Of a stretch of DNA of 64,000 nt, positions 2-53,033 are shown one piece after another; position 1 is the stretch's first letter; every line of letters starts with the position of its first letter. The stretch lies in contig JBFMEB010000009.1 of assembly GCA_040753675.1 (NCBI GenBank), positions 3,407-67,406 of the forward strand, given 5' to 3'. Below the pieces are notes generated by a model. The model had not been told where the DNA came from, ran no database searches, and saw only the letters and a list, made by a program, of their open reading frames with translations. Made by a program: the position numbers and the translations under genes. This DNA is from Candidatus Omnitrophota bacterium (GTDB lineage: Bacteria > Omnitrophota > Gorgyraeia > JAHJTE01).

Positions 2-870
2 GCATTTTCATTTGCCTCAAGTAGCAGGGCAGAGGAGATTGATGTTATTGTTAGAGTCCAGGATGATTTAAGAGATGATTTAGAGAGGATTCGTAATATT
101 CGCCTGGTAAATCGCGATGGCAATCTAATTTATTTAAGCCAATTTGCAAAAATAAATTATGAAAATCAATTTAACGAAGTTTATAGACAAGGTGGCAGAA
201 ATGCCATAAGCATTTTAATTGAACCTGATACTCGTCTGACTGATGAGAGAAGATTAAAAGCAGCAGTCAAAGAATTATGGGAGAAAGAAAAGTTAAATTA
301 CCGAGACCAAGATTTAAAATTTGGCGAGCTTGAACGAGAAGAAGATGAGGCAATGAAAAAGATTGGCTATAATTTTATTCTGGCAATAGTAGCCATTTGG
401 TTTATGACATTTTTAACTCTAAGAGCAAGTATTAGCCAGACATTTGTGGTGCTTTCAAGCATTATGTTCTCAACTTCTGGCGTTTTTGTTGCTTCTATTT
501 TGGTGGGTAGCCCATTTGAATTCTCTACTTTGGTGACAATTTTTGCTTTAGGTGGTTTAGTTGTCAACAATTCTTTGGTCTTACTTTATGAGATTAACCG
601 TTTAAGAGGCCAGGGATTAGAAAAAACTGCCTCAATATTAAATGCCAGCCAGTCAAGGATGAGGCCAATACTACTGACTTCGATAACCACATTGCTTGGA
701 TTCCTGCCTTTGGCAATAGGTATGAGCGGGAATATTCCTTTCTTTACTGCAATGGCTCAGGCCTTGACCTGGGGTTTAGGCATTGCTACTGCCTTAACCC
801 TCTTTATTACTCCTCTTCTTCAAGCAGTAGCTGATGATGTTATAGACTGGTTTACTCGGATTAGGAAAAG
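2..870 (+). other. Domain: RND (AcrB/HAE-type) efflux permease C-terminal half (periplasmic subdomain + TM7-12)
   Basis: The translated motif ...LLYEINRLRGQGLEKTASILNASQSRMRPILLTSITTLLGFLPLAIGMSGN... matches the conserved RND region (AcrB ...[21 protein letters not shown]...). Several TM helices flank it. Confidence 0.6.
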
Positions 871-3800
871 AAATAAGGATAAGACGATCACTAAGAACTT
901 TGGTTTTACGATGTTTGGTTTACCAATGGTGAGCCTTGTCGAGCCATTCTGGCTGCCTTTTGGTGCAGAGACAGTTGCTATATCTCTAATAATTCTAATC
1001 GGCCTCTATATTCTCGTCTCTTCCTTCAAGCAGCAGATATTGAATTTTGCATTAAAAAACAAAGCACCTCCAAAATTAATAAGAGCATTAAATCTCTCCC
1101 TCCTAGATTTGCATCAAGACGGAATTGCTATTATTGGTTTCGGAGATTGGTCCTCGAGAACATACCTTCCTAAATTAAGAGATGAATTCCCGCATATTCC
1201 TATCTATGTTGCCTTAACTGAATTTAATAAAGCAAAATTAAAAGCAATTAGACGCCAATATCCTACCATAAGAATTATTAGATGTGATGGAGATTTTAGT
1301 GGCAGGGCATCATATGAAGAGGTTTTTAAGAAGAGAAAAATAAAATCAGTGATTATTGCTACGCGCGATAAAAAATCCCACGATGAATTAGCCAAACAGG
1401 CAATTCTTGCCGGCAAACACGTTCTTGTTGAAAAGCCAATTGGAGGTGAGATAGCCCCAGAATTTGTAAGGCTTGCTAAAGAAAGACGAGTAGTTTTGGC
1501 TGTTGGCATACAGTATGTGTATGATGCTGCAGTGAATGCTCTTAGAGGCTATTTAGAGCAGATTGGCGAGCTGGAAGGCATAGCTTTGAGTTTGCTCAAT
1601 AAGCAAAAGAATAACAAGAAAAATATTATCCCGGTTTTTGATAATTTAGGCGTGCATCTCTTGAGCATACTACAGATAATCTTAGGCATTAGTGAAGCAA
1701 GAGACTTGAAAGTTGTCTCTGATGTAAGAGACTGGATGGACAGGGTTAGCTTAAAGTTTAATTATGCAGGCATTCCAGTGAGATTAGATGTAGATAGTGA
1801 TTATCAGGGGGAAGCTAATAAGCGAGAAGTATACATCAAGGGTAAAAAAGGATTCTTAATTTTAAACTTAGATACTGGCGAAATTCTGATACTTACGTAT
1901 GAGCCATTTAAGAAAGAAGTAATCAAGCCTGAAAGAAAAGATTTGATTTCTTTAGAATTAGCTGACTTCTTTAGGGCAATAGAGCAAGGCGCTAGCCCAA
2001 TCAACAGTGTCCAAAATACACTTTGGATTTGGCAGATAGCTGAAGAGGTAAGATCAAGAATTTTAGAGCAGGTAAATCTTAGGCTTTTATCAGGCCATAA
2101 TTGTCTGGTAATGCGCTTAATTGAGATTTTTGGGAGAGAATTCAAAGATGAGATTGTTGACTGGTATATTCGAGAAGGAATAAATTTAAAAATTGTTCCG
2201 GCATTCTGTTTAGCATTTATAGAAGCAGTCAAGTCTGGCAGAGAACGTCTGGGATTAAAAGGCGAAACAGTTAGCAGCATTATCGAAACAGCCATGCAAA
2301 AAACTAAACCTCTTGCTGAGAAGCCTACACAAGATTCTGATAATACTCAAGTTTTAAGCCATATCTTAGGAGTATTAACAAAAGCAAATTTAACAGAAGG
2401 TAAATTCATAGCTGATTGTTTAGTTAAGAGTAGGCCTGTTGATGAGGCAATTTTAGTTAGCGCTTTAGCTTTAAGAAGCGCTCAAAGCCAAGAAGTCCGG
2501 CGCATAGCAATAAATACATTATTGCACTACCAACCCTTAAGCCTGTTATTGCTAAGTCGTTATTTAGAAAATAGTGACGCTACTGGACGTAGGAGAGACC
2601 TTGTCGATGCAGCTTCATTAGCTAAATCGCCGTATGGGATTATTTCGCAAGTTGATTTTTCGCTTAATACTAATTACCACAGATTAAATGACAGAGAGAT
2701 TGCAGTTATTGAACAAAATGTGGGTTTAATAGAAGGAGCGATTAGCCGTCTATTAATTGAGTCTTCAGATGAGGCTTTAGGTCCAACCTATTACATTGTT
2801 TATCCTCAAAATGATAGTTATGGCGCAGAGGCATTTGCAAGCAGAGATTCTAAAGCAGGAGACCCGCACGTAATTAAGGCTCTTCTCAATGACTTTATGG
2901 CTGAAGAAATATTAGAAGATTTAGGCATTCATATAGAGTCTATAAGCTGGGATGATAGATTGTCAAGATTAGATATTAGAGAGTTCCAGCAAAAGCTAAT
3001 ACTTTTGGCAGATTCACAGGATGCTTCACAGGAAACTCGAATAAAGATTTTAAGATGGCTAATTATACTTGGGTTAGATGAGGCAACTGTCAGAGGTTTT
3101 AGAGATAGATGGAGAGTTGATGATTATCTTTTGGATATGTTTTTAGGCCGGCCAAGTGGGGCTAAACGAGATAAGGCCATTTTGTTATTACAGGCAAATT
3201 GCCTTATTGCTTGCCTGATACAAATCTTAGGCACTGAGCATAAAGATGAGGTTATTAAATGGTTTTTAGAGGCAGGCCTTGAGCCGATAGAAACCACAGT
3301 AATTCCTTTGCGGAAATCATTAGAGATTATTCATCAGAATTTAATGGGCAAGGTAATTGGGGGGATGAGGCTATTATGTATCAGCCGCATTGATGAAAAT
3401 ACAATACGCATGGTATTTGAAGATTGTAGTGGTGCTAATAGGCACAAAGTAATTTACATTACCAGAAAAGCAGAGATTCTCCATCATGCCCAAGTTCAAG
3501 ATTGGAAAGAGCCTAAAGTCCCCAGCGGCATAGCGTATCCTGATTTGGGAAATATGGTTAACGAAGATGCATTAGTAGGAGGTTCAACATCAGTTCATAT
3601 GCGGCACAGAATAAGAAAACCCTTTATAGATAGTTTGGCAAACCTGAAATTTATAGGCGGAGGTTTGGGTTTACGCGAAGTAAATGCTATCGTGAGGAAT
3701 ATTATAGAGGAATACAGAAACAGCGGCCTTAGTCCAGAGGAAGCGCTTTTGCGAGTTACTATGTTTATGCAAAGAGAAAAAGACGAGAGGTTGCTAATCT

Positions 3801-6800
3801 TAAATGAACTGGCGATTAAATTAAATATCGAAATTCTCTGGCAGGCAATAATAGAGCTGGATAGAGAGAGATTTTTAGCAGTGCGGAAAATCCTTGAAAA
3901 TAAATTTGGTTTTGTAATTTTTCCTTTTTTTGGTGAGAGAATAGACAATAGCATGAAGGGGACCTGGGCTGACAGGGCACTAACCAGCGAGATAATAGAA
4001 CAGTTTCCTCCTGAAAGCGGCACACGTTTTCCTTTTACCAAAAAATTAAAATTGGATGATTATTTTGAGGCAAGTAGGATTGACGATATAGAAATTTCTA
4101 CTTCTGAATTAAAAGAAGATATCCGCAAGCATGTCCCTGAGGGATTAGGCGTATTTATATTTAGGCTAATTACTGACGAAAATAACAAAACAGTACTTGA
4201 AACTATGGTTATCGATAACGGAAGAGGTTATGACCTGGAAAAATATTATGCCATTGGCCAGTCTGAAGAAGCGCCAAGAGAAACAACAGCAGCAGGTTAC
4301 GATGATGCAGACCATAGATTTAAAGAGGTTGGTCGAGGACATTGTATAGTTGCCTGCCTTATGCCGGATTTTGAAGTTAGGTCTCAAGATAAAATGTTTA
4401 TCCAGGAAGGTCGGACCGATTCAGTGGGTTTTGGAGCCACCGAAGAAATTGTCGGTAAATTTATTACTGATTTGCCTGTTATTGCTGGAACCCAGAAGCT
4501 TTTCCGCACATGGTCAGACAAGCCTGTTGCTACTCAGACAGCAACAGCCATTGAAACAATAGATGAAACAAACAAACAAGAAGTTGTCAAGCCAACTTTA
4601 ACAGAGCTATTAAAAACAAATGATGAAACATCTCAGATTAGAAGGTTATTAAGTTTTATATACACAGATAAAGATATTTTAACGCCTTCACGCAGAGAAT
4701 TATTTATTATTTATCAGACTTATGTGGAGACATATCATCATTATCCCTCACTTGCTGTATTAGCTGAGATTGCTTTGTTGACCAGAGAACGGGCAAGGCA
4801 GATTATAAAGGATGATATTAACCCTATTTTGCGATTTTTCGGCTTACCATTGCTTGAGCTTGATAAAGATTGCCAAAAAAAGACACTCTCGCAAGCAGAT
4901 ATGTTTAAGATGCAGGGGCTTTGGTATGAGTTAACATCAGGCATCAAGGTACCTGGAATTGAACTGAAGAATCTTAATAGCGTGTCACTTAGTGAAGAAG
5001 AGGCATTTCACACGACTCGGGTTAGGGAGTTGCTTATGGATATTGCCAATGAATTAGCGAGGACTCGTAAACCATTCAAAGAATTTGAAGAGATAAAAGA
5101 GAGGCTTTGGGGCTGCGGAAGAATAAAAATTGCTATTTTGAGGCGGTTTTATTATCTTGGTAAGTTAGAAGTTCCTATAAGCAATGAAGAAATAGCAAAT
5201 ATTATTCCTGTCGAGTTTTTGAATAGACTCCCTGCCTTGCCTGCTCGTAGAGGCCCTCGAGATGTGAACTGGAGAAGCCGCTCTGGCAGAGTTAAAAGCT
5301 TTAATGAGCCGTTTGTCGACTTAATTAAAAAGGCTTGTATTTCCGATGCTGAGTTAGAATTTATTTTAAACGTCGTTATTATTATTAAAGATTTACAGCG
5401 CAAATATTCGCTACATTCAATTTTCCGCAGACACAAAGGCATATTAAGCCCTGTTTTGGATGTTTTGGAAAATAATCTGGATTCGGCTCGCCACATTGCT
5501 ATAAAGCAGTGGTTAAGGAGGAAAGAATTAAAAGGAAAACTCGCAGAGTTAATCGAGGCCTTGGGCATAACCGAAAGAGATAAGCATGAACATAAAAGAG
5601 GTTTAAAAGATGCTGAGATTATTTGGCCAGAATTTAAGTTTCATCCTCGTACTATAACTGAAGAACAGGCAATGAGCCTGCCGTTAAGTAAGGGTGCTCG
5701 CCAGTTACTTATTGAATCTATAATATTGCAGCATCTAAAAGGTGGAATATATATAAGGCGCTGGGAAGATTTTTCTCAGATACGGGGTTACAGGCCATCT
5801 TACCTTGAAGAGTTTAAGCACTGTTTGCTTAATCCTACCATGCCTATTTCACAACGGATAAGAACATCTTCTGTTGCAGCAGTAGTTATGCCAGGGGCTT
5901 TGAATATATTTAACTTAGATAATCCGGATATTTTGACTTTACTCGTTTCTCTAATATTCCTCATTCCTTTTGCATTAGCATTTTATGGCGTTAACGCTAA
6001 TCCAACAGAATTATTAGTTAATAGTGCACCTGACTCAATAGAGAGAAAACGCTTAGTTTACATATATAGGGAATTGTTTGATGATTTAGACAGAGAGCGG
6101 TTCATAATCCACCAGGCCTATCTTTACAAGCATGGTCAGTATCCTAAATATGACTTAATTGCTCAGTTGAGCGCAGCGCCGGGCTCTAAGCCGGCTACTA
6201 AAGAAGCAATCCGCCAAAATATCGCAGAGATTAACGCGATATTCAAATTTTTCAATTTATCCGGTTTAGGAGTATTAAAACGAGGAGTATGGATTCCTAC
6301 AGAAAGAATCAGCAAAGAAGATATAAAAGAGATGAGAGAAATCTGGGAGGCATATACAAGAGGTGTTGAATATGTAGAGTCTGAAATTATTCCAAAGAGA
6401 GATAGCCGAGCTATTTCATTAGAAGAGGCCAGAGAACTTCCTCACAGATTTGGCCGCAATCTTATGGTTAGAATAATAAGAGCCAGACAGCGAGGTAGAA
6501 AATTTGCAAATATTAAAGAGGCGCTGGCTAAATTAAAATTAAGAGGAAATGAAGTAGGGATGGCGAAAATTTTAGAAAAACTCTTCTCTTCTATTCTATT
6601 TTTATTAGTGGCAGGAACGGCTTTTGATAACACCTATTCATTATTTGCCATACCTATTATTCTTGGCTTGACTGTTAAGGTTGGGGATATCTCTAAAGAA
6701 GCTAATGAAGCGTCTTTAAAGGATGCTATTGAGCAGTTAAGAGGAAGAGATATTGTTATACTTCAGATGGAATATGAGTTATCAATGAGATTTTTGAAAG

Positions 6801-9800
6801 AATTTTGCGGTTATTTAATAAGAGATTTGAGATGTTCATTAAAGGATGCAGTATATAACACAGGAGAAGTAGCTAAGATTCTTATGGCCGGCGGCTTGGG
6901 GAGTTTTAAACCTGATTTAGTAAAAGGTTGGTACGAGGTCTTAGGAGAACATTGGAGTGGAGTTGAAGCAAGAAAACGCCTGCATGTTTTTGGCATATTA
7001 TATTCTTCGGCTATTAAAGGTCAAGGACCTATAAAGCCACGGGGCTTATCATCGGATTCCAATATTATTAATCTGGTAAGAGGAGCTTTGCAGAAGGTTA
7101 AAGTTTATAGAGGCATAGAGCTTAATATGAATGGCGTAGGTAAGGTTGACGTAGAAATCTATATGAATCCTTATTCAGAATTAAATGAATATTGGCTTTA
7201 TTGCCCGCATGTTTTTCATGAGGCATATTGTGGTGAACGAGATGATGATTTTAGGGCTGTGCAGAGCTTATTATATAGAAAAGTGGTGTTAAGATTTATT
7301 AAAGAGGAAATGAATGAAGGCCGTATTAGTAGAGTCCTATTATTTTCAACCAGCGAGGTAAATACAACATTAGCAATTCCAGCCGTGGTAGACGATGAAT
7401 TTAAGGATGATAAAGATTTTAGCAATATCCTGATACATCATTACAATCACACAATAGTTCCTGCAGGAATCCCTCGCTATAACTGGTATCTTTTTGACGC
7501 ATTAAATATAGCTGAACAGCTCAGAAAAACCATCAAAGATGGAAAGATAGATTTAATCAGTATTACCGGAGAAGTCTGTGATTTTATTACCGGCTGCTCC
7601 AAAGCCCACACCAGAAAGCTTCGAGAAGAGATTTTTGCAAAATTTGCCCAAAAGGTGCTGGAGGATGATTTATTCGGAAACAGTGAAGGCTCGGATATAG
7701 AACGCTGGCAAGGCGAAGCAATTGGGGAAATTATTAAGAAATATATGAGAGAATCAAGTGTTGACGATTATAGCAGTTTGTTTAAAGCGTTAGAAAGAGC
7801 AGAGTCTCTCAAGCTTAAATTTATGGATGAGATATTAGCTGCTAAAAGGCAACAAAAGAGGGTTTTTATTGATGAATTATTGCAAGGGACATTTGGCCAA
7901 ATAAACTTTACCACTGAAGATTTAGAGACAGATGCAGTTGAGCTTGAAGATATGCCGTTCTTTCCATTTGTTAGGAGAATGGTGCCTTATAAGTGCGCCG
8001 ATCTTATTGTAGATATCCTTTATAACCCTGATTTTAGAGAGAGGATTATAAAGAGTAGGGCAATAATCTTTATTGGCGGAAGGAAATTCGATGGGTTTGC
8101 TGATATACAAAAGAGAAGGATTAAGAAATTAATTGAACTTGATAGAAGAATGAAATATCACATTATATTTATTGAAAATCACAATGTATTCACTTCTTGG
8201 ATTATTCAGCAAGGCACAGATTTTGGCGGAATGCTTTCCTGGAAGGATAAAGAGGCAGGACCAACCAGCCCTACCAATTCAGAGCAGAATTTTTCTCCTA
8301 CAGTCGCCACTAGTGACGGCGTAATTGATGAGAGGGTCGAGCAGATAAAGAGAGATAAGCAAGGTAAAATAATTAGCGGCAATGGATATATTGTGGCCTA
8401 TGGAAATGAACGCTCGCCTACAGGCGAGATTATGCCGGATAGAGAATCTTTAGTAAGCGAGATTGAACAGGCCTGCTCAGATTATTTTGATAGAGACAAT
8501 TATAAGGAAGTGGCTTTCAATGCCGGAAAAACCGGAATGCTTGACGGCGATATTCGTAATCAAGCCAAAGGCCTACTTCGGCTCTGGGGACAGCAGTTAG
8601 CTAAAAAGATAGCTTATCCTGCAACAATACCTGTCTCAGATGAGCCAGATAGAAAACCTACTCAGGGAGAATTAGATAAAGTATATGAGATTTTTGGCGG
8701 CTTTGGAAGGATAGATATTGATGAGAATAATTTAATAATCAGTCCCTCCTTAAATGCCCCTGCAGAAGTAAAAAATGGCTTACTTTACGTTAATCCTAAT
8801 ACACTACGAGGGCCGCCAGAACAATTAAGAGTAATTTTTGAAGGTCACGAATTATTCCACTTATTATATCCGCAAAAATCAGACCAAGAGGCCCGCCAAT
8901 TCACCATTCAATATCTCCTCAAAACTAATTTACTATTAAGCCATATAGAGTTTCTCACTAACAATAATCTCAGTTTAATTCCCAAAGCCGATTGGTTGGC
9001 CTCATTAAAGAATGAGGCAGTGGTTTTGCTATCTGATTTAGAGTGGATAAAAAATAACATCAGACTCGCAGGCTCAAATACCGATGAATTAAAAGCTGCC
9101 CTTGGGCTTAAGACATTGTTTGATGGACGCTCAACTATAGTATTTTTATCTTCTGATGAGCGTTACATTATAAAGGTTTACAAATATGCGACAGCTAAAT
9201 ATGAGAGAGAGAAAGAATTTCTACAGGAGCTAAATCCAACATTAAGGCCGATGCTCTATTATTATGATGATAAGGCACAGGCCTTAGTTACGGATAATCT
9301 AAAAGCCCTCGGCTTTACAAGTCTTTTTGAGTTCATGCAGTCGCCAGATATATCTATAGAAGAATTGAGAGTTGTTATGCGTTTAGCAGCCGGAGCATTA
9401 GCCAGAATTAATATACCTCAAATGCCTGCTCATTCAGCGCCAATACTTGATATCTCTGATGAAATAAGAATTTTAAGAGACGCAGGCTTTAATGATTTGC
9501 CCGATACCAATTCTGTTAAATTGCCACAAGATGATTTCAAAGAACAAAAGGTTGTTGCTCATGGCGACTTCTCTCCTTGGAATATATTTGTAGACCCAAA
9601 GAGTGGTCAGATAGAAGCAGTCATTGATCCGGAGTCCGAGCGTTTTAATACTCACAGTAGAGAACTTGTTGCTGCGATTGAAGGATTGATAGATGCGCGC
9701 AAGAATAATCATTTGTTAGTATTACATATAGGAGAGCTTGTATCTGAATTTATAGACGAATATACAAGGATAGCCAATATTGATAAAGAGAAATTATATG

Positions 9801-12800
9801 CGCGGCTGCATTACATTTTAGCCAGCCAACTGTTAATTGATGCATATCAATTTTATTGGAAGTGGGGAATGAGAGAATGGGCACAATGGAGAATAGCCCT
9901 GGCTAAAAAATTATTAGTCATGAAAAGATTTTCTATACCCGGCTTAGAAAATATCTTGAATGTTAATTTAGGACAAGATGTTATTGTTTGGGCAGGAGGC
10001 GTGGATACTGATTATGGACCGGTTTCTGGAGTTAGCATAAACTCTAAGATAGGAGAGAAAATAACTTTGTATGTCCGCCTTAATATGCGCGATGTAGATT
10101 ATGAACCACTTATTGCAACAAACATTATTGCTCAGGTTTGGACTGATATTAACTCTGGAATCTGGCATAGTGAAGGACTCCTCGAGTTCTATAAATATGA
10201 AGACGGAAATTACTTATTTAAGGGAAGCTTGATTCCATTTGTTCCAGGAAAGTCTGAGTTTACTGTTAGATTCTCTACTGATGGAGCTACTTGGCATTAT
10301 GCAGAAATGCCTTACGGCAACGGCATAATTATGGCTCAAGATAGTTCTGATGATGCCTTAGATAGATTCCAGGTAAGACTTCAAGAGATTATCGATAGAG
10401 GAAGTATGCCGATAGTTTTTGTAGATATGGATTATACAATTACTGAATCTTTTGGCTCAGAATTAGTTGATAGAGTAAAAGATGCACTTAAAGAACTTTA
10501 TCTTAGGGGTGGAATCTTTGGCTTAAATACTGCAACAGCTATTGATGGGGTAAAGAGGCAAGTACTAGATAGCTTAGGTGGATTATTTAACTTCTCATTT
10601 ATGATTATTGAGATAGGTAGAGAAATTTATGCCTGGAACGAAACTGAGAAAAGATATATTAAATTACCGATTACAGCTACGACTAAAGGAAAAGCAATGA
10701 GAAAGTTAGCACATTATTTAGGCGTAAGTTTAGAAGATTTTATATTTATTGGAGATTTCCCAAGCATAGGAATAGATGATTCAGTCTTAAGGGAGAAATT
10801 AGGAATAGTTGTTGCCATAGGCAAAAGTAGATTGCCTGAGACTATCAAGACAAAGCATTCAGAAACCTTGTTGATTAAACCTCTTAAATTAACTCCTCCG
10901 TGGGTGGGGCCAGAGGCAACAGTTCAATATATAAATCGACTTATTTTAGTTTTAGAAAGAAATAAAATTAACCAAACTCGAGGCCCACCATCTCCTCCAT
11001 TATTTAATTACCCAGCTAAAGTAAGGCGAACTGAATCAAAGAGAGAATTTCAAGATGTAGTTACGCTTGTTTGCTTTGATGAAGCAAAGAAAGTATATTT
11101 TAGCGGGCAAAACAACTTAAGAGAAAAAATCGGCAGGGCTGAGTTTATTAGGTTAAAAAGAGCGCTCCTGAAAGCCATAAGAATAATTTCAAGAGAATAT
11201 CCTTATATTTTTAATGCTTTAGTTAATAGAAAGATGCGCCTGCGCTTATCTACTGAAATTGAACAAGCCAGTTACGTGACTGCACACGAGTTGGTTATCA
11301 ACATTGATTGTTTAAGGCCTGCTAAGGAAGAAGCACAAGATTGGGAACTTGCCCTAATCGGCATATTAGAACATGAATTTGCCCACTTAGAAAATCCTCA
11401 CCTTCACGAATCCCAAGTAAGACAGCATAGTATTTATTTTTATCAAGGTCACCTTGATATCTTACAGGCAACAATAAGCCAGTTTGAAAAGGGCTTTCTC
11501 ATTGACCCAGAGTGGCTTGCAATCCTTAAGAATATAAAAAGAATAATTGTTTTAGAGAGATTCTGGTCTGAGGTAGCAAAGACTGAATTAGTAAAAGAAT
11601 TTTTAGAGATAAAATTAGACAGATATAGAAGCAGCAAAGCTCGAGCCCAAGACCTAATCGCTAAGGCCATAAAGAGATTTTCAAGCATACTCGCAGATTC
11701 CGGAGTAAACGAACAGCTGGTAAAGAAATTTGAACATATTTTCTTTGAATATGACAGCGTAATTATCGTCTATAAACTGGGCAGCTCAACTTACAAAATC
11801 ATCTGCATAGCGAAGAGAGATATATTAGATGCATATAGTTCAGATTCAGTCAGCCAGAATATTTTCAATGCTGAAGTGCGCACAAGCATTTTTAGGGACA
11901 ACGGTAAGCTTGCCTTTGGCTATATTAGGAAACTCTTGATATATCAAAATGACCCGCAACTGTATCAGATTATATCCTTGCTTATTTCTAATAATACTCA
12001 CGATGTAAGACGAGCAATAACTATCATAAAAACAAAGCTTGCTAGGGGGGAGAGTCCAGAGACCTTAAAAGAACTTTTGTACGCTAGTCTCTATTATTGT
12101 CACAATCCACAATGGGGAGTGAGTCAAGACATTAGAGTTATGATGAACAAATTGCTTGAAGATATAATAACTGAACGACCACTTACATTTCCTCAGAGTG
12201 TGATAAATTTAAGCGTGTTTAAAGGCCAAACCCAGACGATTAGAATTAGTTTGCCGGTTAACTTCAATCCTTTAGTTAATAAAAAGATGAGTCAAAGATA
12301 TCAGGCGAGAATCAGGCTATCAATAAACGGCAAATTAAAGAAGCAGGCCATACCCATGGCACTTGATTTGGATAATTCTAACGAGGCAGAGATAGCTTTT
12401 GCCACTGAGGTAAAAGCGAAAAAGGGCTGGATTCATTACACTATCCAGATCTCGAAAGATGCTGGAAAAACCTGGGAATATGAATTAGTTCATCCTTATT
12501 CAAATGGCTTGATAAAAGTTATCGCTGATGAGCTGGGTGAAAGAGTCTTAAGTACTTATGCAGATACTTGGAATTTGCATCTTGATGAAAAATTGTCGCC
12601 ATTAAAAGATGAAACTGGCACTTATGTGTATGGGGCATTCGATGATTTAGCAAATCAGCTTGAGGTGATTAAAAATGAAGGATATTCACGTATCTACCTT
12701 TTAGGTGCCTTGGAATTGGGTTGGGCAGGTGAAGCCGGTCCTGATCCTTCTGTATTCAGCATCTGGGATGGGGTAACTATTCGTCGGGACTTAGGCGGCT

Positions 12801-15800
12801 TAGAAGGTATGATTAGGTTAAGAGACAAAGCCAATAAATTAGGCATAAAGATAGTGCTGGATTTAATGTCGCATTTTGCCAGAGCAAATTATTCGTATGA
12901 ACCCATATTACCGGTTTATATTGCTGATAGGGAAAGGTTAGAGCGTCGTGCTGGCTGGGATGGGATTTCATCTGAATGGTTTGATTCATTTATGATAAAT
13001 ATGCGTCAATTAAAAAATGTAAATGCCTTGGTTAATATTTCTAAAGAATTGGCAAGCTTAGGAATTTATTTACGCGTTGATGTTGGACATGCCTTTGATA
13101 GCGTCTTTCCACTTCACTTTAGGCAAAACGAGCGTAGCCGTCTCTTAGGAGAAGTGGTCAGTACTGGTTTTGATTCATTAGATTTACGCGGAACTTGGGA
13201 GCCAAATATTTCTCTATTGGCAATTGCTTATGAAACACAAAAGGAATTCCATGGATCGGTTATGTATGCAGAGCAATGGCATGGAAATGAGGCGCGGATG
13301 ATTAAATCTGGTGTTACTGCTCCTTACAATCCGCTCCAAAAGGTATTAGAAAATACTGTTCATAATGGCGCAGGTGTTTATCAGCCGCAAGGTCTTTACG
13401 AAACCATGTGTTATCTTAACAAAATTTTATCTGCCTGCGGCGGACAAACCGTTAGTTTATTTAATTCTCAAGATGAAGAAGCGCCTCTAAGTAATTACCA
13501 GAATTCTATCTGGCCGGTAGCAAGTTTCCTGGTTTTCTCTACTTACGGACCTTTGCTTTATCATTTAAGTCGCTTACCCGGCCCTGAAGTTGGAGATTTA
13601 AAAGAGCGCTTTGCAGTAGCTTATTTAGAGAGTTGGAAGCATTGGGTAATGAATCGCTTAAATCATCCCTGGCAAGGAGAAGAAGAGGCGCGCAGAATGA
13701 TTTTGGATAAATATCCATTATTGAGGAATTATCCCGATTATATTAGGCAACTTTTTGACTTTGCAAAGCGCAATCGGATAATTACTCACGGTGAAATTAT
13801 ACCTCTTTTGACAGGGAACGAGCGCGTGGCTGGTTTTGCTCGCAGACAAAAAGGCGAAACTGTCATTTGTCTATTTAATTTTCCAGAGGTTATAGGTAAT
13901 GAGTTAGTTCCTATCGCACATCAAGTTAGTTTTAGTTTAGAGAACTTAGGTCTAAAGCCGGATAGCTTCTATTGGATTCAGGAAATCTACAACAATGAGT
14001 TAGGCCGAGCTAAGAGGTTAAGGAAGAAGTTCTATACCGGTGAAGAGTTGATACATCTTGGATTCTGGGCAAATATGGGTCCGGTAGCAACAAGGATATT
14101 CAGCATCAAAGAGATTCCTTCAGAGCCTAATAGGCAAACGCTGATAATGGAATCCCTGCGCAGATATCACAGGTATGGTAAAAATCGCATAGAGCATAGC
14201 TTTATAGCCAAACTAATCAAATCATCTTTAGTCAATAATCGCAAAAGTGGACGAGAGGCATTTATTGATATATTTGTAACAATAGTTAATTTAATTAAAG
14301 AAAGAAAAATTGATTTAGAAATCGGCAGTATAGCAAACCTTTTAAATGATATAACTAACCAGAATCCTCTTTTAAGGCAAAGATTGGTTGAACGATTAAC
14401 ATTGATAGCGGCAAACGAAAAACTTATACCCGATTCTTTCATACGCCAGCAGGCAGTTGCGACATTGCGGGTTTTAGAGGTAGGCACGATTGTTCTTATT
14501 TCTCCCGAGGCACGTTATGGCGGAGGCAAAGGCGGCGTAGCGCTTTACGTTTCAGATTTTGCCGAATCATTAGCTGATTTAGGCTTTGACGTTGTTGTGG
14601 TGACAGCGCTTTATGGCATAAACAGAGAATTTATTTTTAAGAATTTCCATCCGCGATTTAATGGGGCCTCTGTATTTATAAACTTTCCGAATGCCTATAA
14701 GGAAGGCGAACCGGTTACTTATGGTGCTGGCCAGAGAGTAAATATACTGAATTCAAAAGTGGGTAAAGTCAGAGTATTATATTTGGAGAATAGTTCATAT
14801 TTAGATTATCCTTACGGCGGGCTTACTGGAGAAGATAAGTTAAGACGTAGCCATTTATTTTCGTTAGCAGCCCTGCTGGCATTGCGTAATCAAAATATCT
14901 ATCCGTCAATAATTTTGACTAATGATTGGCCGACATTCTTAGCGCCAGCTTATTTAAAGTTATACAGCGAATTAGCCAGTGATGAACATTTTGTACACAC
15001 TAAGATAGGCTCAGTCTTGCATAATCCTCATCCGAATTACAGCATAACTATAAAGGAAGATAATCGTACGAGAAAAGATTACTTTATAAAGGTTATGGGT
15101 TTAGATCCTTGGCAACATTGGCGGGTAGTTACAGACCCAGATAGCGGTGAGTTGTCACTTACTAATTGTGCGCTAAAAATGTCTGATTTTCTAATTACAG
15201 TTAGTCAGCCGATAAGAGATAGAATTATTAATGAGCCGCATGTCTTTCGTTATCAAGCTGCATATAGCGAGAAACACAAAGCCGGATTATTCTATGGCAT
15301 ACAGAATGCTTTCAGGATGTCCGAAAGGCAGAGGGTATGGTTTATATCCAGAAGCAGTATGGCAGAGATTGCTGATGTCAAGACAAAACATCGCTTATTT
15401 GCAAGATGGTTGCATCTTAAAAAGACAGCTAAGCAAGCTCTGCAAGAATATTTTGGACTGGATAAAGATAGCCAAGATAGAAAACACATTCTTTACTCAA
15501 TGTTGCATCGCATCTCCAATCAAAAGGGATTTCAGTTATTGGTTTGGAAAGTCAATGACCCAGAGACAGGCAAGGAAGAAACGATTTTAGAGAGATTGCT
15601 GCTTTCCGATGAAAGGATACAATTTATTATTGCCGGAGAGCCAGAACATAGTCCTGATGGAGAATACTTTGATAAAGAATTCAGGCGAATCAGCCAAGAT
15701 GTTAGATTTAAAGGCAGATTTGCATATCGCAATACCTTTGTTAATCCTGTTAGCGAGAGAGCACTTTATCGAAATATATATTTGGGCGCTAATTGGTTTG

Positions 15801-18800
15801 TAATGCCTTCTGGCGGTGAAGTTGGTGAACCAGGGGGCTTGAGTAATTTAGAAGCTTTGGCAGCAGGCACACCTGTGATTGCCCATAATCAGGATGGCCT
15901 TAAAACTACAATTCACGATCCATATTTTGGCGATAGCGAGCCGATAAACGGTATAAAGTTTGAAGGCTTTAATGGTCCGGCATTGCTGGCGATACTTATT
16001 GAGGCAAAAAGAATTTATTTTGACGAGGTGCATAGCCGTACAGACAGACGAGGCAGGCCAATAAAGTATCGCACTATAAGTTTTAATGCCGCTAACACAG
16101 ATAGTCGCTGGATTAATCCCCTTAGAGAATATATTGGAATTTTTGAGAATATTATTTCAGGTAAAATTCCAGAGGATGTCCAGGCGATTGAGCTCTTGAG
16201 CGCACTTTCCAGTATACCCGAACAGGAAATCGCAGACGTAATAATAAAGAAAGGCTATAAGCCTTCCAAAGCAGCTGAGATTATTGTTTGGGCGTTATCT
16301 CATCCGATAAATATAGTGCGCAAAAAGGCAGCACAGATAATCTGGCATATGCACAGAGCTGGCGTACAGGATATGCGCAGACTCCTCGAACGAGTTGATA
16401 GATGGGCTAATGAATCGATTAAGCATTCAGCAGAAGTTCTCCTAAGAAGAATAGTTATGCTCGCTTTACTGGCTTTACCTATATTAGGCGCTGCTGGCGT
16501 TGATATAACTGGTATTTTTAGTATTGATTCTACTCCTTATTTGGTCCTTGTAGCTGCGGTATATAAGAGGGGCCATAAAAAGAGAGATAGCCGACATCAG
16601 GTTAGTAAGCACCGTGCAGTAGCTCAAATTCAACGAGATATACGAATCCTTAAACATAGCCAAGGCACCCGACAGGTTCATCGAAATTTAGTTAAAGATA
16701 TACTTAGCAGGCTTGAGTCAGGCAAGTTGGATTTCGATTTGATTAAAAAGTTAGATAATTTAATTTGGCTAAAACATTTGATAAGCGAGATTAGTTGCAA
16801 GAAGAAGTTCACAGAGGTATCTTTCGATTTGCATTTAGAATTACTTAACTTCTTGCTGGGCCTTGATGAGTTTAAGGAAAAACTTGCCAGAACAGTCGAA
16901 CACTTAATTACTGATAAGACAACTTCCCTTTTAGTTAGTCCTAATTTCAAAGCCGCAGCCGCGAGGGCGCTTGAGCAATTTAAAGCGCAAAAGGAAAATG
17001 GCAGTAGCGTTAACTTGCATCCTTTGGTTTTAATATTAGCTTTACTTATTAGTGTTGGTTTTGTCCTTCTAGCTCACAACTCACTACCGATAGCTCATAA
17101 CTTTTCTGCATTTATCCTCTTCGGTTTTATATTCTCTCCAAGCCACAATCCTCACTATAGGAGAGTCAAAGCAATAATCAGGAGAGATTCCATAGATTTT
17201 GAAGGAGAAATAACGATAGAAGAAAAATTTGGCCTGAGAATTAGCTTATCTTGCCTGAGAGATCTTTTACCTGAAAATGGAGAACTTAGAGTTTTGGTTA
17301 TTCATGAGAAAGATGGGCTTAATGTTTCTTCTGTTGGCTATCACAAACTCGCAGCTATATTATACGAACTTTCGAAGGTAAAAGAAAACATCGACCCGCT
17401 CACAACTTTTTTAATTAATGGTTTTAGCATATCTCCTGAGAAAAGTCTGTATCTACAAATTAGATTAGCTCAAATTTATCAGGAAAACTCATCTGTGGTT
17501 GCAGTTAAGTTGATATTCGCCCTCGATGAACAAAGTGAGGTTAGTATACTCAAAGGTGTAATAGATACAATTTCCACATTAGTTAATACAATTGTGCCGC
17601 CGGATTCTCAATCGCTGTTTCTTGAGAAGTTAAGTAAAAAATTACTTAGAAAATTATTCGATGGATTAACTATATTAGTCAGATCTCATCCTAATGAAGA
17701 TATAAGAGCCGAGGCCTTAATGTTGTTTACCGACATATATGTAATGCAGCAGTTAGTTAAAGCAATTGCAGAAGACAAAAGACACATTACAATATTGCCT
17801 TTTTCGTCAATAGAGTTGTTATCGCGGGCCTTAGGAGATGATAGTTATAGAGTTCGAGAAGTGGCGATAATAAGTTTAATTAAGTTAGGGATAAAGTATA
17901 ACCTGCCAGATGAATTAAGAATTCCGATTATTGAGTTATGCCTAAGGGAAGATATGTTAGATTTAGAAAGAGACAACTTAGGAATATTATTTAGCAACCT
18001 TGACTCTTTGGAAGCAGTTCTAATGTTAGAACGAGTTCTCGAGATAGAACTTTCATCGGAAAATCCAAGGCCAGAAAAGATATATTTCTACCTTAGGACG
18101 CTACAAGAATTGACTCCGGTAAGTTATTTTCTACTAAAAAGAATTCATAGCCAAAGACCTGAGCTTGAAATTAGCTTACCAGAAGATAATCCGGAAAAGG
18201 CTATAGGAGGAATAGTAGTTTTATTCGAAGATAGCGAGTCAGGAATTTTTTACAAACTCGTTACAGAACCGGAAAAACCACAGGATATTCAGAGTCTTGA
18301 GCTTAATTTAACTTCGGGGATAATTTTTAATGAGGCGCGCGGTTTAACTGATAGAGATAGAGTTAGGGCATTGGCTTGGTTAAATATTTTAGGCGCTAAT
18401 AAAGATACATTAAGAAAAATCCAGACAGAGGCAAAGATAAAAAGTGCAATCTGGTTTTTATCCGCAATTATAGTTTTGCTTGTGGCTTTCGGCTTTATCC
18501 ATCATCTAGTCCCGAATGTAGAAACTGCTTTAGCTATTCTTCGGGATCCCGAAGTTATTCTTAAGGGGGTAGCTTCATTCGGGATATCTTTCCTTCCATT
18601 TTTCTTTGGATTCATAAGATCGCCAAATGTTGTTCTGGAGAGAATACTACCTTCTTATCCCAAACGGGTTCTGGCAAAAATAACCAGAGAGGGTATTGCA
18701 TTTAAGGTTGAGGAGGGTAGAGAGCTAAGTCCAATAGATAAACGGAATTTAAGGGATAATTTATATTGTTTAATGAAGTGGTTAAAAGTTGGCAGTTACC

Positions 18801-21800
18801 TAGAAGTATGGGTAATTTACGATGACATTGTTAATTTGTCAGTTCCCGGACTTAGTAACTTAGGATGCGTATTAAATCATCTATTAGTGGTTCAGAAGAA
18901 TGAAGAACAAGTGGCAGGGTTTTTGATTAATGCTTTTATTGTTGCTGCCGGAGCCGAGGCCCTATTTATTAAGGAAGCATTGGTAAATGCTTATCGTAGA
19001 AATCCGCCGCTTATACAGAATCGTTTAATAAACTGTTTAGATAGCAGAGTGCATTCACAGATTGTTTCCGGGGCAATAGATGTAATAAGCCAGTTGCTTG
19101 ATAGGGAAGAACTAGAATTCCTCTGCAATGTAAAAGATAAATTGGGCTGGCTGATAGAAAATCATCCAAATGATTCTGTACGAATAGTTGCATTAGAACT
19201 TTGGACAAGTATAGATTTAATTTTAAAGCAAAAAGAAAATGAAGACGACAGTCCGAATAATAGTCTTGGCTTTGAACAAATTCAAATATTTGAAAAAGCG
19301 CTAAAGGACCAGAATTCAGGGCTTAAGAATATGGCATTACTAAGTATAAGGCGCTCAGGTTTTATGTTTAATATGCCTAAGGAATTAATCAAGCCAATCA
19401 TTGACTTGATAAGGGATCCTCCATACCAAGATGTTGAAGAGTTAGAAGCTTTTCTGTTGGCGATTGATAACATTGAGGCGGTTTATCTGGTTGTTGAGGC
19501 AATTGATAACTTAGAATATTTAAAGCTTCCTGCAGTAGATTTTCGCATGAGGACACTAGAGAGATTATGGCCAGTCAGTCATTTTGTTTTAAAGCGCCTT
19601 AAAAGTGAGAGGCCTGATTTGCCTCTTTATTTTAAAAGAGATGACCGAGAGGCAATTAAGGCAATAATAGGGTTACTTGAGTCAGAGGAGGGAGAGATAT
19701 TTGGCGAGGTACTTATAAATGAACCTGTAAGCCCTGAAGAGCTAAGGCATATTTTGATAGATAGGATTATCTTTGATAGCCAAACACTAATTTCTCATCA
19801 ACGTATAACTCCAAAAGCAACGAGAAGGGCATTAGCTACTTTAAGAATTTTAGGTGTTAGTAAAGGAGAATTGGAATCGATTATTAAATCAGTAGGACAT
19901 GGCCAGTCTTTGCTTTTATCAGCAAGCTTACCTCCTTTAGGACTTGTTGATTTTAGAGAAAGTATATTTGGCTACTTGGTTGCGTGGGGAATAATTACCT
20001 TAGCTACAGTTGTTTTTGCAATTTGGGTATACAGCATTATTTCTAAGAAACACAGATATTATAAACAGAAGAAAGAGCTTGAGAAAAAACGAGAAGACAA
20101 GATTTTATCTGCTTTTGTTCCAGACGAGGAATTAACCAACATCAGGAGAATACGGTTTAAAACTTTAAAGAAGCCGACAAATACTATTGCAGGAGAAATA
20201 AGTGGAATTGAGAAGTATTTAGCTTATATTCTGGTTCAGGCAAAGATTGTGGCAAGCATAGTTGAAAGACGCTCCTTCAATAAGTTGAATTTTGTTCCGC
20301 CTTACCTGTTAGAAAGAGCGGGTATTGTTGCAAGACAAGCTTTAGAGAAAGTAACGTCTCAGACTAATCAGACCGTTAGAATAACCAACGCTGTAGAAGA
20401 GCGGGAATTAGCTATGAGAGCCACTGCTTTATTTGAAGGAATGGTTATTGGTCAGGATAGGCTTGATCCTGGAACACATGTTGGGCTTGACGTTATTGAA
20501 TGTAGCGCTGGTTTAAATTCTTCAGTTAAGTTAGGATTATGCTCTCTGGGTATTTATTCAAGCTACTTTCCAGAACATGAGTTTCCAATGGAGCGTACCA
20601 GGGGCGCTGTTTATTATGAAAAATTCATATTGTCTCCGAGGCTCTGCAGAGGCCGTCCTAGCATAGATCTTTCCGGAGATTATAATAAAGTCCTTGAGGA
20701 ATTAGCCAGGGTTAAATATGAGGAGTCTTTGCCAAAGAGAATACTTGACCCAATATTTTCTCTTACCGGTGAAAAGTTTAAGCGAGTTGTAAAAAGTATT
20801 GTAGGTTGGTTTTGGCTTCCCGCAGATAAAATTATTTGGAGATTTATTAAAGTTGGGATGCTGGCAAGGCCTAGACATAAATCTCGATTTGACGAATTAG
20901 TCAGAAGAGGTGTGCCGGTAAAAGAGAAAGATTTCGAGCGCGCTTTAGAGATTGCCAGAGAAAGAGGCATATATAAAAATGGTAACATTATTTTAGTGGC
21001 AGAAGGAGATTGCACGCCCGCCCTAGATTTAGCCTTAGAAAGAGGGACAATAGATTGCTTTATTGGAGCTGGCAGGACGTTAGAAAGTGTATTTGCAGCG
21101 GCAGTGCTTAAATTTAATGGCGGTGAGATTTATACCATACCTGCATCTATTGCCGCGTTGAGCAGAAAAGAGGCAGATATCAATACAGACAGGGATAAAT
21201 TCAATACCACTGAGATAGCCGAAATGAAAAGAATCGGAATCGTTGAGCCGGGAACGGAAAAAGGCAAACAAGTCTCTTGGAATAAGACACGTTCAGCAGG
21301 AGATTTGTTTAAAGCTGATAAAGAAACATTGTTCTCATTCGGATTTATTGAGGATAATCCATGGGGTTTTAAAGGCGCGAAGATGGATTTAAGAACAGGC
21401 CTCATTACTGTTCCGGTTCTTTTTGGTGACGAGACTGGCGAAATAACTATTGCCTATATAAGTTTTGAGACTAACATAACCCAGGAAATCAATAATTTAA
21501 AAGTTGCCAAAGGAAAAGATAGATTTCTGCCAATGTTTCGCCTGGCACAATATTATTGTAAGCGCGGTCTTATTGAACAAGCAAGCATACTCTATGTGGG
21601 AATAAAAAGATTGGCCTCAAGGCATAAAAGCGGTTTTGGTGATTTAATAATTGCTTTGGAAGCATATATTACTGCAGTAAGAATAATAAAAATTGATAGT
21701 CCTGCGGATTATAAGAAACAAGAGGTTAAACGAAGAAGGTATAGAGGACAATATGATGCAGCCCTGCAGCAATTAAGAAAAGTTGCTAAGTATGATCCGG

Positions 21801-24800
21801 ATGATGACTTAGATTCAAGACAGCTTTTAATATCATTAATAAAATTTATTTCATTGTTTATTTTTGACCTCTCAATAAAACAGTTTAAAAATTTGGAAAT
21901 TAAGAGAAAGATAGAGGCCAGTCCCGAGGATATCAGAGAATCCAGGAGCCAAGCCAGGAAAATTAGTTTTAATACTGTTAAAGCACTAAATACCCTGCTT
22001 GAAATAGGAAAAGAATGCGGCCTGCCCCAGGCAGACATTGATTTAATAGAATTGCAAGTTAATGTAATTAAATTGCTTCGGAAAGCAAAAGATAGCCAGC
22101 AAAAATTTGCTACACTTGCTAATATTTTTGCAAAACTTCATGATAAATACAGAAGGATGCATCTAAATGATACTGCATATAAGATGTACGAAGAAGGTAT
22201 GCTTTATTGTCAGAGAGTTATTGATGATTATGGCGGCTCATTGCTTGTGAGTAGCGCAATGCAGATGGCAGAAATTCTTATGGACTCAGCGAGACATCCC
22301 GAAGCAATTGAATGGTTTTTAAATATTTTAGATAGGAAAAGAAGAGCAGGTTTAGTTGCTTTCAAAGGCAAAGAACCTGAGAAGGTGCTTGCAATTATGC
22401 CTGATGAGTTTGCTGCGAAAGAAGAAATTGTCTGGCCGCCATTATTAGAGAAAGCTGTAACTGGTTTAATAGATTCGGCAATAAGTTTGTTTGGATATGA
22501 TGATGTGGAGGCGATATGTAGCCGTTTAGAAGTGCTTTTCTTTAACGAAGATGCAGTTGTCCGCATGATTACTATCAAGGTTTTTGCAGAGAGGAAAAAT
22601 TTGATAAGTAGTCGAATCCTGATTCATTTCTTGGGAAATCCTCTATATATAGAGAAAATATTTGCGGATTTCGATTTGCCAGAATTTAGAGATCGCTTTA
22701 TTATTTATGACAAACGCGATGTTAATTATCCGGGTATTTTGAAGATTATCAAACGAACTGTTGCTACGAGAGCAGTGTTAAATGTTTTAAGGCGCTATCT
22801 TTTAATAGAAAATTTGCCTATAGTAAGGCAGACGTTGAAGATTTTCACGCGAGTTGGCTCAAAAGTTGATTTAGTTATCTTAAGAGAATTCATGGCGAGG
22901 CTAACGGCAAAACCAAGATGGTTAAAGACAGAAGAGAGAGATTCTTTGATAAGATTAATAGCTGGCAAGGGTCTAAAAAGCGGTGTTAAGCGTCGAATAA
23001 ATTCAAGAGCAAAATTCGCAGAAGAAATATTTAGTTTATTTTTAACTGCCGCTTTTAAGCCCAGGGCAGCAAGCGCAAATGTAGTATTAGGAGAAAATGA
23101 AACTGATGAAGAGCTAAAAAGATTGTGGCGTTGGGTAACTAAGATGTTTACTCTAAGTGGAATTAATACAAATAATATTTGTGCAGTTGAATTTGAATTA
23201 GGGTTAACCGATTATCAAATAGAGCGCGTATTTGATTCATTGAATTTAACGCTAATAAATGCAGCCATCAATCGGTTTAATGCGATGAAGGAATTGCCTG
23301 CAGAAATTCCAGTATATGATTTGACTGATGATATGTGCGTTAGTTTGATACCGATGTATGAGAGAGTGCCTCTTGAGCCGGATTTGACTTACAGTACCAT
23401 ATTTAAAATTAAAATTGGCAAACAGAAAGCAAAATTACAAACAACAGTTTTTTGTCTTGCTCCTTTGTTCTTTTTTAATTATTTTGCTTTCGACTATTGG
23501 CTATCAACCTTTATTTTTGGTTTGTTAATGTTTATATTAGCTAACACTAAGTTACTAGGTCCAAGTTGGTGGGAGTGCGACGCAGAATCAACCACAAATA
23601 AACCTGAGCAGAGACCGCCAACTCTGCAACCCAGAAAAGTTGGGCGCTTAACAGAGGCGGGCGATAAAGCGCCACAGCTAATAACAAGACCAGCTGTCAA
23701 CAAGGAAAAGTCAGCTTCAAGTACTGTTGGTAAAGATCAAAAACCTGATATAGGAATAGTTAGAGAGCGGCTAATAGAAGCGGTTAAGGCTTGGAAAAAA
23801 CAAAATAAAAAGCCAGTGATTAATGTTGAGGCTGCTGAAAGACTTTTAATTGGTATTTTAGAAGAATTGGGTTGGCGAGGAAAGATATCGAAAAATGTGT
23901 TTGAAGATTTGGTTATGAAGGTGGTATTTGAAAAACCTAAAGGCGGATTTCTTACATCGTTTATAATTTTAACTAGCATCTGGTATCTAGCATCCAGTAT
24001 CTCAGATCTTTTAGCCCTTAGCTCATTGTTCTTAGCTCCTAGCGCATTTTTATCCAGCATCCAGCATCCAGCATCTAGTATCTCAGATTTTCTAGCCCAT
24101 GGCTCACAGCCCATATCCCATAGCACCCTTGCCTTTTTGCCATTTATATTCGGCATGGCTGCTAAAAACGAAGATAATCCAGACGGTAAGAAGGACCAAT
24201 TAATAAATTTGTTGGTCGATAAAATTGGCATTTTAAATATCAAATTTACGCAAATTTTAGATTTATATCGCAATATCCCAGATGTATTAGAGCGTGCACT
24301 ACAACTGGACCTGGCTTCTTATATCATAGCTAATAAATTAGGCCTTGATGAACGACGTAAGAGAATATTAATAACTGCCTCGTTACTTTTACCTGTAGAC
24401 GACTTCGTAACTTTGAGTGGAGTCAAAGAAGTAATAAGCGAGACCCTAAAGGATGATGATATAAGAGAAGCAGTATCTATTCTTAATTTAAGCCATAAGG
24501 AGTTCAAAACAGGTAAACAAGGCATATTAGTCGCTACAGCAGGAGTTAATTTCGACTTAGTGATTTTACAGCAAGCTCTTTATGTATTAGATTCTCTTAT
24601 TTCACCTGAAGTTAGCGATATAGATAAGTTTCTTAAAGGGTTAGAGAAAAGGCTTCCAACAGGCGAGATTGATAAAGAGCTATTTAAAGCTGTCTTTAGT
24701 TTATGTAAAGATACCAGTAACAGATCAAAACGCTTCAGAAGCTTGTTAGATATTCCGCATATCACTTGTCATTTTGCTGCAGATGTGCCGCAAAAGATAA

Positions 24801-52925: not shown

Positions 52926-52975
52926 GGCACAGATGATCGCTGATAATTGAACAGATGATCACAGATTGATACATA
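52926..52975. repeat. Word-repeat array, inverted orientation of the same word (cacagatgatc)
   Basis: cacagatgatcgctga...aacagatgatcacagattgat. Together with 51551-51612 it brackets the PilZ-ROK gene as inverted arrays. Confidence 0.55.
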
Positions 52976-52994: not shown

Positions 52995-53033
52995 GATATT
53001 TAAGATTTAACCTACGATAGCGGGGGATGGATC

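Follow-up and report, generated by a model that had tools for sequence, protein, structure and literature searches.

The subject of this analysis is a block of enzyme modules with likely roles in alpha-glucan metabolism, encoded in a 64,000-nucleotide stretch of DNA from Candidatus Omnitrophota bacterium (GenBank assembly GCA_040753675.1, contig JBFMEB010000009.1, positions 3,407 to 67,406 of the forward strand), the whole of which is referred to here as the window. This block is very probably part of a single giant gene, whose product would belong to the membrane-anchored, 'multi-enzyme metabolic' class of Omnitrophota giant proteins. In such a product, whole enzyme-sized units that are separate genes elsewhere would be joined in frame and set apart by short Pro-rich linkers, transmembrane hairpins, and HEAT-like spacers. 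The predicted order of the block is a GT35 (alpha-glucan phosphorylase)-like module without the pyridoxal phosphate (PLP) lysine, an APH-fold kinase, a HAD-IIB phosphatase, and a full copy of a ∼1,840-aa protein that combines GH13 and GT5 domains. The arrangement itself is a documented feature of Omnitrophota giant proteins and does not constitute a new class of system.

Frame 2 of the forward strand is stop-free from nt 2 to the stop codon at 51548-51550, a run of 17,182 codons in the translation, against 1,791 and 1,520 stops in the other two forward frames (∼10% of codons). Given about one stop per ten codons in those frames, an open frame of this length is not a product of chance. The listing of open reading frames (ORFs) gives one ORF at 353-51550 (17,065 aa) that spans all of the modules, but the window begins with this frame open, inside an RND pump domain, so that the giant ORF (2..51550, + strand) exceeds 17,182 aa and continues past the 5' end. 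In the Pfam domain map, obtained by scanning the entire ORF in four pieces and then as separate segments, its first ∼275 aa (2-830) correspond to the C-terminal half of an AcrB/RND transporter (ACR_tran profile positions 868-1018) fused in frame, and its C-terminus (50126-50818) consists of a transmembrane-like segment, a LysM domain (50294-50419), and a YkuD L,D-transpeptidase domain (50438-50818, E 9e-20), a peptidoglycan-directed end that is presumably periplasmic. Between these ends the polypeptide is tiled by enzyme domains from at least 15 distinct families, GT5/GT1 among them, and the GC content is uniform along the ORF (0.34-0.41). An earlier reading of the same DNA from its letters alone, termed here the sequence-only reading, had placed five consecutive enzyme modules in one ORF, and all five are indeed colinear in this frame at coordinates that were right to ∼50 nt. 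The last of them, the GlpX-type fructose-bisphosphatase (FBPase), is nevertheless not contiguous with the glucan block, although it shares its frame, as hairpins and spacers lie between. A sixth module, the GT35-like one at the start of the block, was missing from that reading.

The alpha-glucan block itself extends over aa 2232-5476 (nt 6695-16429), 3,245 residues that contain no transmembrane-like segment. At its N-terminal edge lies a transmembrane-like hairpin of two adjacent hydrophobic segments (6554..6694, + strand, aa 2185-2231), and a second hairpin (16427..16561, + strand, aa 5476-5520) closes it and is followed by a stretch rich in lysine and arginine. Since no hydrophobic segment occurs within aa 2232-5476, the GT35-like, kinase, HAD, and ∼1,840-aa modules share one side of the membrane. 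The whole ORF contains 33 strong hydrophobic segments (Kyte-Doolittle score ≥1.9), all called by a hydropathy scan and not by a trained topology predictor. Near the modules these include pairs at aa 2185-2231, 5476-5520, ∼5667-5715, and 6143-6205, together with one long segment at 6653-6682, and a lysine- and arginine-rich stretch follows most of them. Based on the positive-inside rule and on the enzymes' need for ATP and nucleotide sugars, the block is inferred to be cytoplasmic.

The C-terminal part of the block is a complete embedded copy of the ∼1,840-aa family, or 'PVC module' (11054..16432, + strand). By BLAST, residues 2-1827 of the 1,843-aa family member P0004 are colinear with aa 3685-5477 of the giant protein at 43% identity, and the module is laid out as an N-domain, a beta-sandwich, GH13, a linker, GT5/GT1, and C-terminal helices. 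The family is found mostly in Planctomycetota, where it is annotated as 'glycogen/starch synthase', and its members match at ∼45% identity over 100% of the query. Planctomycetota encode it as a separate gene, complete with start and stop codons, and it occurs there without a kinase neighbour. Of the 402 positions that do not vary in 31 homologues, the embedded copy keeps 331 (82%); for the GH13 catalytic domain the figure is 90%, and this conservation points to retained function. A profile scan of metagenome contigs returned only Planctomycetota-type stand-alone copies, at 36-52% identity, and no second giant that carries the module. The sequence-only description of 'an operon read as a single polypeptide' is apt, as units the size of whole genes are contained in it at full length, the ∼1,840-aa stand-alone protein among them. 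Its companion statement that these are normally separate enzymes holds for units that are separate genes elsewhere, but not for GH13 and GT5, which form one pre-existing protein family and were not joined here.

The GH13-type unit (12236..14125, + strand) comprises an N-terminal beta-sandwich (∼12236-12562), a (beta/alpha)8 barrel (∼12638-13790), and a C-terminal beta-sandwich (∼13793-14116). An AlphaFold model of nt 12236-14173, built on a 37-sequence alignment (pLDDT 74, pTM 0.79), gave 390 matches at E≤1e-3 when searched with Foldseek against the PDB, and all 50 of those listed are GH13 (alpha-amylase family) structures, led by neopullulanase, TVAII, MalZ, acarbose hydrolase, and GlgE (E 3e-19 to 1e-13). 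The Asp/Glu/Asp triad is encoded at nt 13079 (D676), 13271 (E740), and 13472 (D807) and is invariant in 32-37 sequences, with region II-, III-, and IV-like motifs reading RVDVGH, AEQWH, and NSQDE, mapped by motif resemblance. The family profile also matches alpha-amylase 3dhu and alpha-glucosidase/TreS/sucrose-isomerase chains at two colinear places. The earlier assignment of a GH13 domain at 12600-14100 therefore stands for fold and triad, but PF00128 finds no match in the region even at E≤5, where the sequence matches are limited to weak NCBIfam and PDB profile hits, and the region IV His, invariant in the 31 homologues, is Gln in the embedded copy.

The glycogen-synthase-like GT-B predicted at 14480-16040 is borne out by Pfam, NCBIfam, and PDB profile matches to a GT5 plus GT1 unit at 14489..16030 (+ strand), with PF08323 at nt 14489-15235 (78.1 bits, E 1e-21) and PF00534 at nt 15500-15919 (34.1 bits, E 2e-8). 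The family profile matches glycogen and starch synthases of the PDB. The TIGR02095 glgA model is matched at E 6e-29 and 101 bits, below its trusted cutoff of 328 and thus not at equivalog level, and the GT5 family consensus lacks the KTGGL lysine.

The N-domain (11054..12235, + strand, 395 aa, AlphaFold pLDDT 87) has no significant fold match in the PDB, the best being the minigluzincin selecase 4qhi, which its first ∼115 aa resemble weakly (E 0.24, prob 0.97). This domain carries an HExxHx6H motif at aa 3791-3802. Across the 17,182 aa, HExxH occurs just twice (8846-8860 and 11372-11407, against 0.36 expected from shuffles), and the two occurrences flank the APH-HAD stretch and have similar local contexts. 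Among 36 homologues, the position of the first His is Arg in 29 and His in one, and none of the 36 has Glu at the position of the catalytic Glu, so that HExxHx6H is complete in the embedded copy only. The pair could be a junction protease or a matter of chance.

Several observations concern the ∼1,840-aa gene where it stands alone. On two unrelated Planctomycetota-type contigs it lies directly downstream of an operon resembling a type II secretion system (T2SS) or type IV pilus (T2SSE, two T2SSF, and N_methyl pseudopilins; L001 2331-9778 and L005 2556-9768), which echoes the reported T2SS proximity of Omnitrophota giant genes. On a further contig (L002 7556-12199) it adjoins a gene for a 1,547-aa fusion with GT5, GDE_C, MGH1-like GH, and Alpha-amylase domains; the Planctomycetota-type lineage seems often to carry large fusions of alpha-glucan enzymes. 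The partial protein P0104 (820 aa) is the most similar to the GH13-side half, at 55% identity, and its NCBI label, Candidatus Hodarchaeota archaeon, is probably a binning error or reflects a transfer.

Upstream of the ∼1,840-aa module, the kinase predicted at 9100-9870 is recovered as an APH/protein-kinase-like core at 9140..9634 (+ strand) that scores 31.3 bits with PF01636 against a gathering threshold of 23.2 (E 2.3e-7, segment scanned alone). The beta3 Lys (YIIKVYK), HGDFSPWN (aa 3187-3194), and VIDPE can be read in it, such that the HGDxxxxN and IDxE catalytic motifs are intact. The sequence fits the generic PF01636 only; no PDB sequence is matched, maltokinase 4u94 included, and the maltokinase N-cap PF18085 gives no Pfam match even at E≤5. 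Searches of single modules against PDB sequences with phmmer were nearly uninformative throughout, and profiles were needed. The phosphatase predicted at 10400-10870 likewise holds as a HAD-IIB (Cof-type)-like unit (10403..10876, + strand). PF08282 (Hydrolase_3) matches nt 10631-10756 with 24.1 bits against a threshold of 20.9, covering the motif III-IV stretch only, and the NCBIfam Cof-type HAD-IIB model TIGR00099 matches at E 9e-5. All four motifs were found by eye as DMDYT (I, aa 3475, nt 10424), GLNTAT (II), TKGK (III), and GDFPSIGIDD (IV). A segment ahead of the kinase (aa 2949-3012) was considered as a paralogue of the N-domain of the ∼1,840-aa module, but the match is marginal (-0.5 bits, conditional E 0.023) and is not claimed.

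The block opens with the GT35-like module (6692..8611, + strand), which scores 27.3 bits with PF00343 against a threshold of 27 and whose family profile matches plant and animal phosphorylases of the PDB at E 6e-11. In the family consensus of 14 Omnitrophota sequences, the PLP-lysine motif EASGTSNMK reads EAGPTSPSN, with Asn aligned to the Lys of 4bqe. With the PLP lysine replaced, the module is not a canonical phosphorylase. Its homologues are nearly all named Candidatus Omnitrophota and are of two kinds, namely stand-alone proteins of 790-1,100 aa with a single N-terminal transmembrane helix, and fragments of long ORFs that share a sharp boundary at aa 2227-2241. In the long ORFs, the neighbours of the module vary and include ROK, PGM, PRK-like, HATPase, and ribulose-5-phosphate epimerase domains. 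Stand-alone homologues of 886-1,002 aa also agree with the view that the modules exist elsewhere as separate proteins. Other giants were checked for a hairpin ahead of every GT35-like module, and the rule does not hold.

The GlpX (class II FBPase)-like module (20324..21586, + strand) lies ∼1,200 aa past the alpha-glucan block, beyond several transmembrane hairpins and two HEAT-like spacers. The earlier assignment of a GlpX-type FBPase at 20300-21170 is supported with respect to homology, in that PF03320 scores 35.6 bits against a threshold of 27, over 53 residues only, and a profile of 13 relatives plus the window copy, which itself fits the family profile at 206 bits, matches E. coli GlpX 1ni9 at E 4e-44, making the family homologous to class II FBPase. 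Its N-terminal metal-binding motif is degenerate. The relatives read VVIGEGERDEAPMLYIGE where the window copy reads NAVEERE...RATALFEGMVIGQDR, so that GEGExDEAPML is lost, and the NCBIfam equivalog is matched with 17.5 bits against a cutoff of 259. Like the class II enzymes 1ni9 and 7js3, the module keeps DxxE(G/C)(T/S), GD, and GxGxxxE, here as DxxE(C)S, (E)GD, and GAGxxxE; unlike them, it also lacks an alignable D33 region and carries a ∼50-aa insertion and a family-specific C-terminal extension of ∼150 aa followed by TPR repeats. The metal and catalytic residues of E. coli GlpX, namely D33, E57, E59, D61, D85, E88, T90, D186, D188, and E213, have kept equivalents at D85, E88, D188, and E213, with Ser for T90, Glu for D186, and an altered E57/E59/D61 segment. 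A word-indexed search returned one homologue, an Omnitrophica 'fructose-bisphosphatase class II, partial', and an exhaustive HMMER search returned 33, mostly inside 1,000-5,000-aa proteins or their fragments, with no conventional ∼330-aa GlpX among them.

The pattern of catalytic residues thus differs between modules. The GH13, GT5, kinase, and HAD modules look catalytically competent from their sequences, and the GlpX-like and GT35-like modules may be inactive or repurposed because their canonical catalytic residues are lost.

These features agree in many respects with those of known Omnitrophota giants. The giant genes termed 'Archaeovorins' are described as reaching 85,804 aa and as encoding HEAT repeats and many membrane-spanning regions, with the GT5 'glycogen synthase' as their second most common domain, FBPase, PGM, HAD, and aldolase-like domains elsewhere in their products, and carbohydrate import systems nearby (West-Roberts et al., 10.1101/2023.11.21.568195). 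The same preprint cites transcription as a single mRNA and proteomic detection for an example of 39,678 aa, and leaves cleavage of the product open. In a second preprint, 'multi-enzyme metabolic clusters' are listed as class 1 among long proteins, a sugar-metabolism co-occurrence module includes PF08323 (in 153 long proteins) and PF00534 (in 127) along with PGM and ROK, and 46% of long proteins are assigned a transmembrane-only, membrane-anchored cytoplasmic topology (Nielsen and Lui, 10.64898/2026.06.07.730766). The ORF in the window similarly exceeds 10,000 aa, has many transmembrane segments and HEAT-like spacers, carries GT5/GT1, HAD, FBPase, GNAT, and kinase domains along one polypeptide, and has carbohydrate importers adjacent to it. 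In addition, the GT35-like and GlpX-like modules find their best matches in proteins that are named Candidatus Omnitrophota or Omnitrophica, mostly fragments of long ORFs. For the ORF as such, no close homologue was found. The order of GT35-like, APH, HAD, and N-domain-GH13-GT5 modules and the capture of a ∼1,840-aa protein do not figure in the descriptions of Omnitrophota giants that were available from the two preprints.

Further comparison separates the block from other systems. It resembles the Planctomycetota ∼1,840-aa family (P0001-P0099) in colinearity, GH13 triad, and invariant positions, but there the protein is the product of a stand-alone gene with R-x-x-x-H and a region IV His, whereas here it forms an inner part of a longer frame and lacks start and stop codons of its own, at ∼43% identity, with HExxH and a region IV Gln. 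The eukaryotic polypeptides CAD, AROM, and type I fatty acid synthase (FAS), and viral polyproteins, similarly join several pathway enzymes in one translation product, but they are soluble, far shorter, and of fixed architecture, whereas here membrane hairpins lie between the modules and the neighbours vary between relatives.

Several points weigh against placing the block in this class of giant proteins as a tethered alpha-glucan enzyme set. SecA-DEAD, a domain reported in most full-length giants (West-Roberts et al., 10.1101/2023.11.21.568195), gives no Pfam match (PF07517) in the windowed 17,182 aa, although the N-terminal part beyond the window could hold one. No homologue of the APH-HAD stretch (aa 2871-3684) came up when 5.8 billion proteins were searched by word index, nor was a domain for ADP-glucose pyrophosphorylase (GlgC) seen in the ORF, and substrate specificities are inferred for all modules. 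The topology was derived from hydropathy by a simple scan, together with the positive-inside rule, and many such domains are predicted to be extracellular in the account of West-Roberts et al. (10.1101/2023.11.21.568195).

That the ORF is an artefact of assembly or sequencing errors, or of an unusual genetic code, that merged neighbouring genes can be regarded as effectively refuted. Errors do occur in the ∼1,840-aa family, as two long-read assemblies of Planctomycetota show the homologous gene as a pair of adjacent calls, but errors break ORFs rather than extend them, a run of 17,182 sense codons is not a matter of chance when the other frames have ∼10% stops, and the composition along the ORF is uniform. 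Downstream genes also end normally under code 11, and giant ORFs have been documented independently in complete genomes (Nielsen and Lui, 10.64898/2026.06.07.730766). Alternative codes and readthrough are irrelevant, given zero in-frame stops. A possible but rather unlikely alternative is a polyprotein, translated once and cut at its junctions into conventional enzymes, such that the fusion would be a strategy of expression. The end-to-end match of modules to complete stand-alone proteins, short Pro-rich junction linkers such as GPPSPPLFNYP before aa 3685, the position of the sole two HExxH motifs on either side of APH-HAD, one of them in a weakly minigluzincin-like domain, and the cleavage by C39 or S8 peptidases proposed by West-Roberts et al. 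(10.1101/2023.11.21.568195) would all suit such a polyprotein. The windowed part of the ORF, however, has no C39, S8 peptidase, or dockerin domain in the Pfam scan, a further difference from Omnitrophota giants as regards C39 and dockerin, the selecase match is not significant, no recurrent motif resembling a cleavage site was identified, and the hairpins between modules are better explained as permanent tethers.

The sequence-only reading had labelled the block a GlgE/maltokinase-type set, in which a maltokinase would form maltose-1-phosphate for a GlgE-type maltosyltransferase, with glycogen synthase and FBPase in the same polypeptide. Fusions of TreS and Mak genes are known in the GlgE pathway, and the block resembles the actinobacterial version (TreS-Pep2/Mak, GlgE) in pairing an APH-superfamily kinase, encoded upstream, with a GH13 domain that has an N-terminal beta-sandwich; GlgE structures are moreover among the Foldseek matches, where they have the highest TM-scores (0.51-0.52), and the end of the barrel has weak matches to TreS/oligo-1,6-glucosidase-like GH13 models. 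The label is nonetheless very improbable and was not retained. Neither the maltokinase N-cap nor the GlgE N/S domain (PF11896) is matched in Pfam even at E≤5, there is no TreS domain, the kinase matches the generic APH model only and no sequence in the PDB, neopullulanase-type structures match as well as GlgE and stand above it by E-value, and GH13 plus GT5 form one pre-existing family that is also found without a kinase neighbour. It is also quite unlikely that most of the modules lack catalytic activity and instead bind carbohydrate or provide structure in an envelope or surface protein for attachment to prey. Such a scaffold would accommodate the missing PLP lysine of the GT35-like family, the lost GEGExDEAPML of the GlpX-like copy, the Gln in GH13 region IV, NCBIfam scores that are all far under equivalog cutoffs, and the extracellular location and predatory role predicted by West-Roberts et al. 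(10.1101/2023.11.21.568195), but intact catalytic features in GH13 (the triad), GT5 (the E-x7-E region), APH (the catalytic loop), and HAD (all four motifs) tell against it, as does the proportion of family-invariant GH13 positions that is kept, which fits retained function.

Outside the block, two HEAT-like spacers of ∼440 aa (17117..19882, + strand, aa 5706-6140 and 6201-6627) share 32% identity by self-BLAST, with HEAT_2 scoring 24.4 bits, below threshold, and each copy is bracketed by transmembrane-like hairpins followed by lysine- and arginine-rich segments. Weaker internal repeats pair aa 1529-1702 with 1997-2175 and aa 7989-8133 with 9076-9240. Further along the same ORF, within 27638-35977 and 42917-45946, are two GNAT acetyltransferases, an AAA_18 P-loop kinase, a Pol-beta-type nucleotidyltransferase, a guanylate kinase directly before an amino-acid kinase, and an EamA transporter with ∼8 transmembrane segments. 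Internal promoters or terminators at the module junctions were considered and rejected for want of enrichment over shuffled controls, as nt 6000-22000 hold 52 promoter-like sites against 48.4±7.3 and 15 terminator-like sites against 11.6±3.6.

Downstream of the giant ORF, on the same strand (51615-62191), genes of ordinary size with normal ends under code 11 encode a PilZ protein, a GH94 (cellobiose/cellodextrin phosphorylase-type) enzyme, a sugar ABC transporter (binding protein and two permeases), and an MFS_2 sugar transporter. The GH94 phosphorylase and the sugar importers are in keeping with the association reported between carbohydrate import and giant genes. They likewise suit an alpha-glucan role for the block, in which the tethered enzymes would build or remodel a glycogen-like alpha-glucan from imported sugars. 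To judge from sequence, the block is most likely a membrane-tethered enzyme set that acts on such a glucan and is supplied by the GH94 enzyme and the importers. A more far-reaching and fairly improbable proposal is that giants are built through the capture, as cassettes, of whole enzymes that were already membrane-anchored or multi-domain, including the complete ∼1,840-aa GH13+GT5 protein, in which case the block would be an active, tethered polymer factory that stores the sugars of prey, and the minigluzincin-like HExxH domain might release or regulate it.

What is new here, within an arrangement already documented for Omnitrophota giants, is the end-to-end capture of a Planctomycetota-type GH13+GT5 protein, the pattern of kept and lost catalytic residues, the hairpin-bracketed block without transmembrane segments, and an HExxHx6H motif present in full in the embedded copy alone. 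One sugar-metabolism block of a giant protein is thereby dissected at the level of residues, with at least two of its modules being complete copies of the proteins of ordinary genes, and the question of whether such giants act as mega-enzymes, polyproteins, or scaffolds is made concretely testable.

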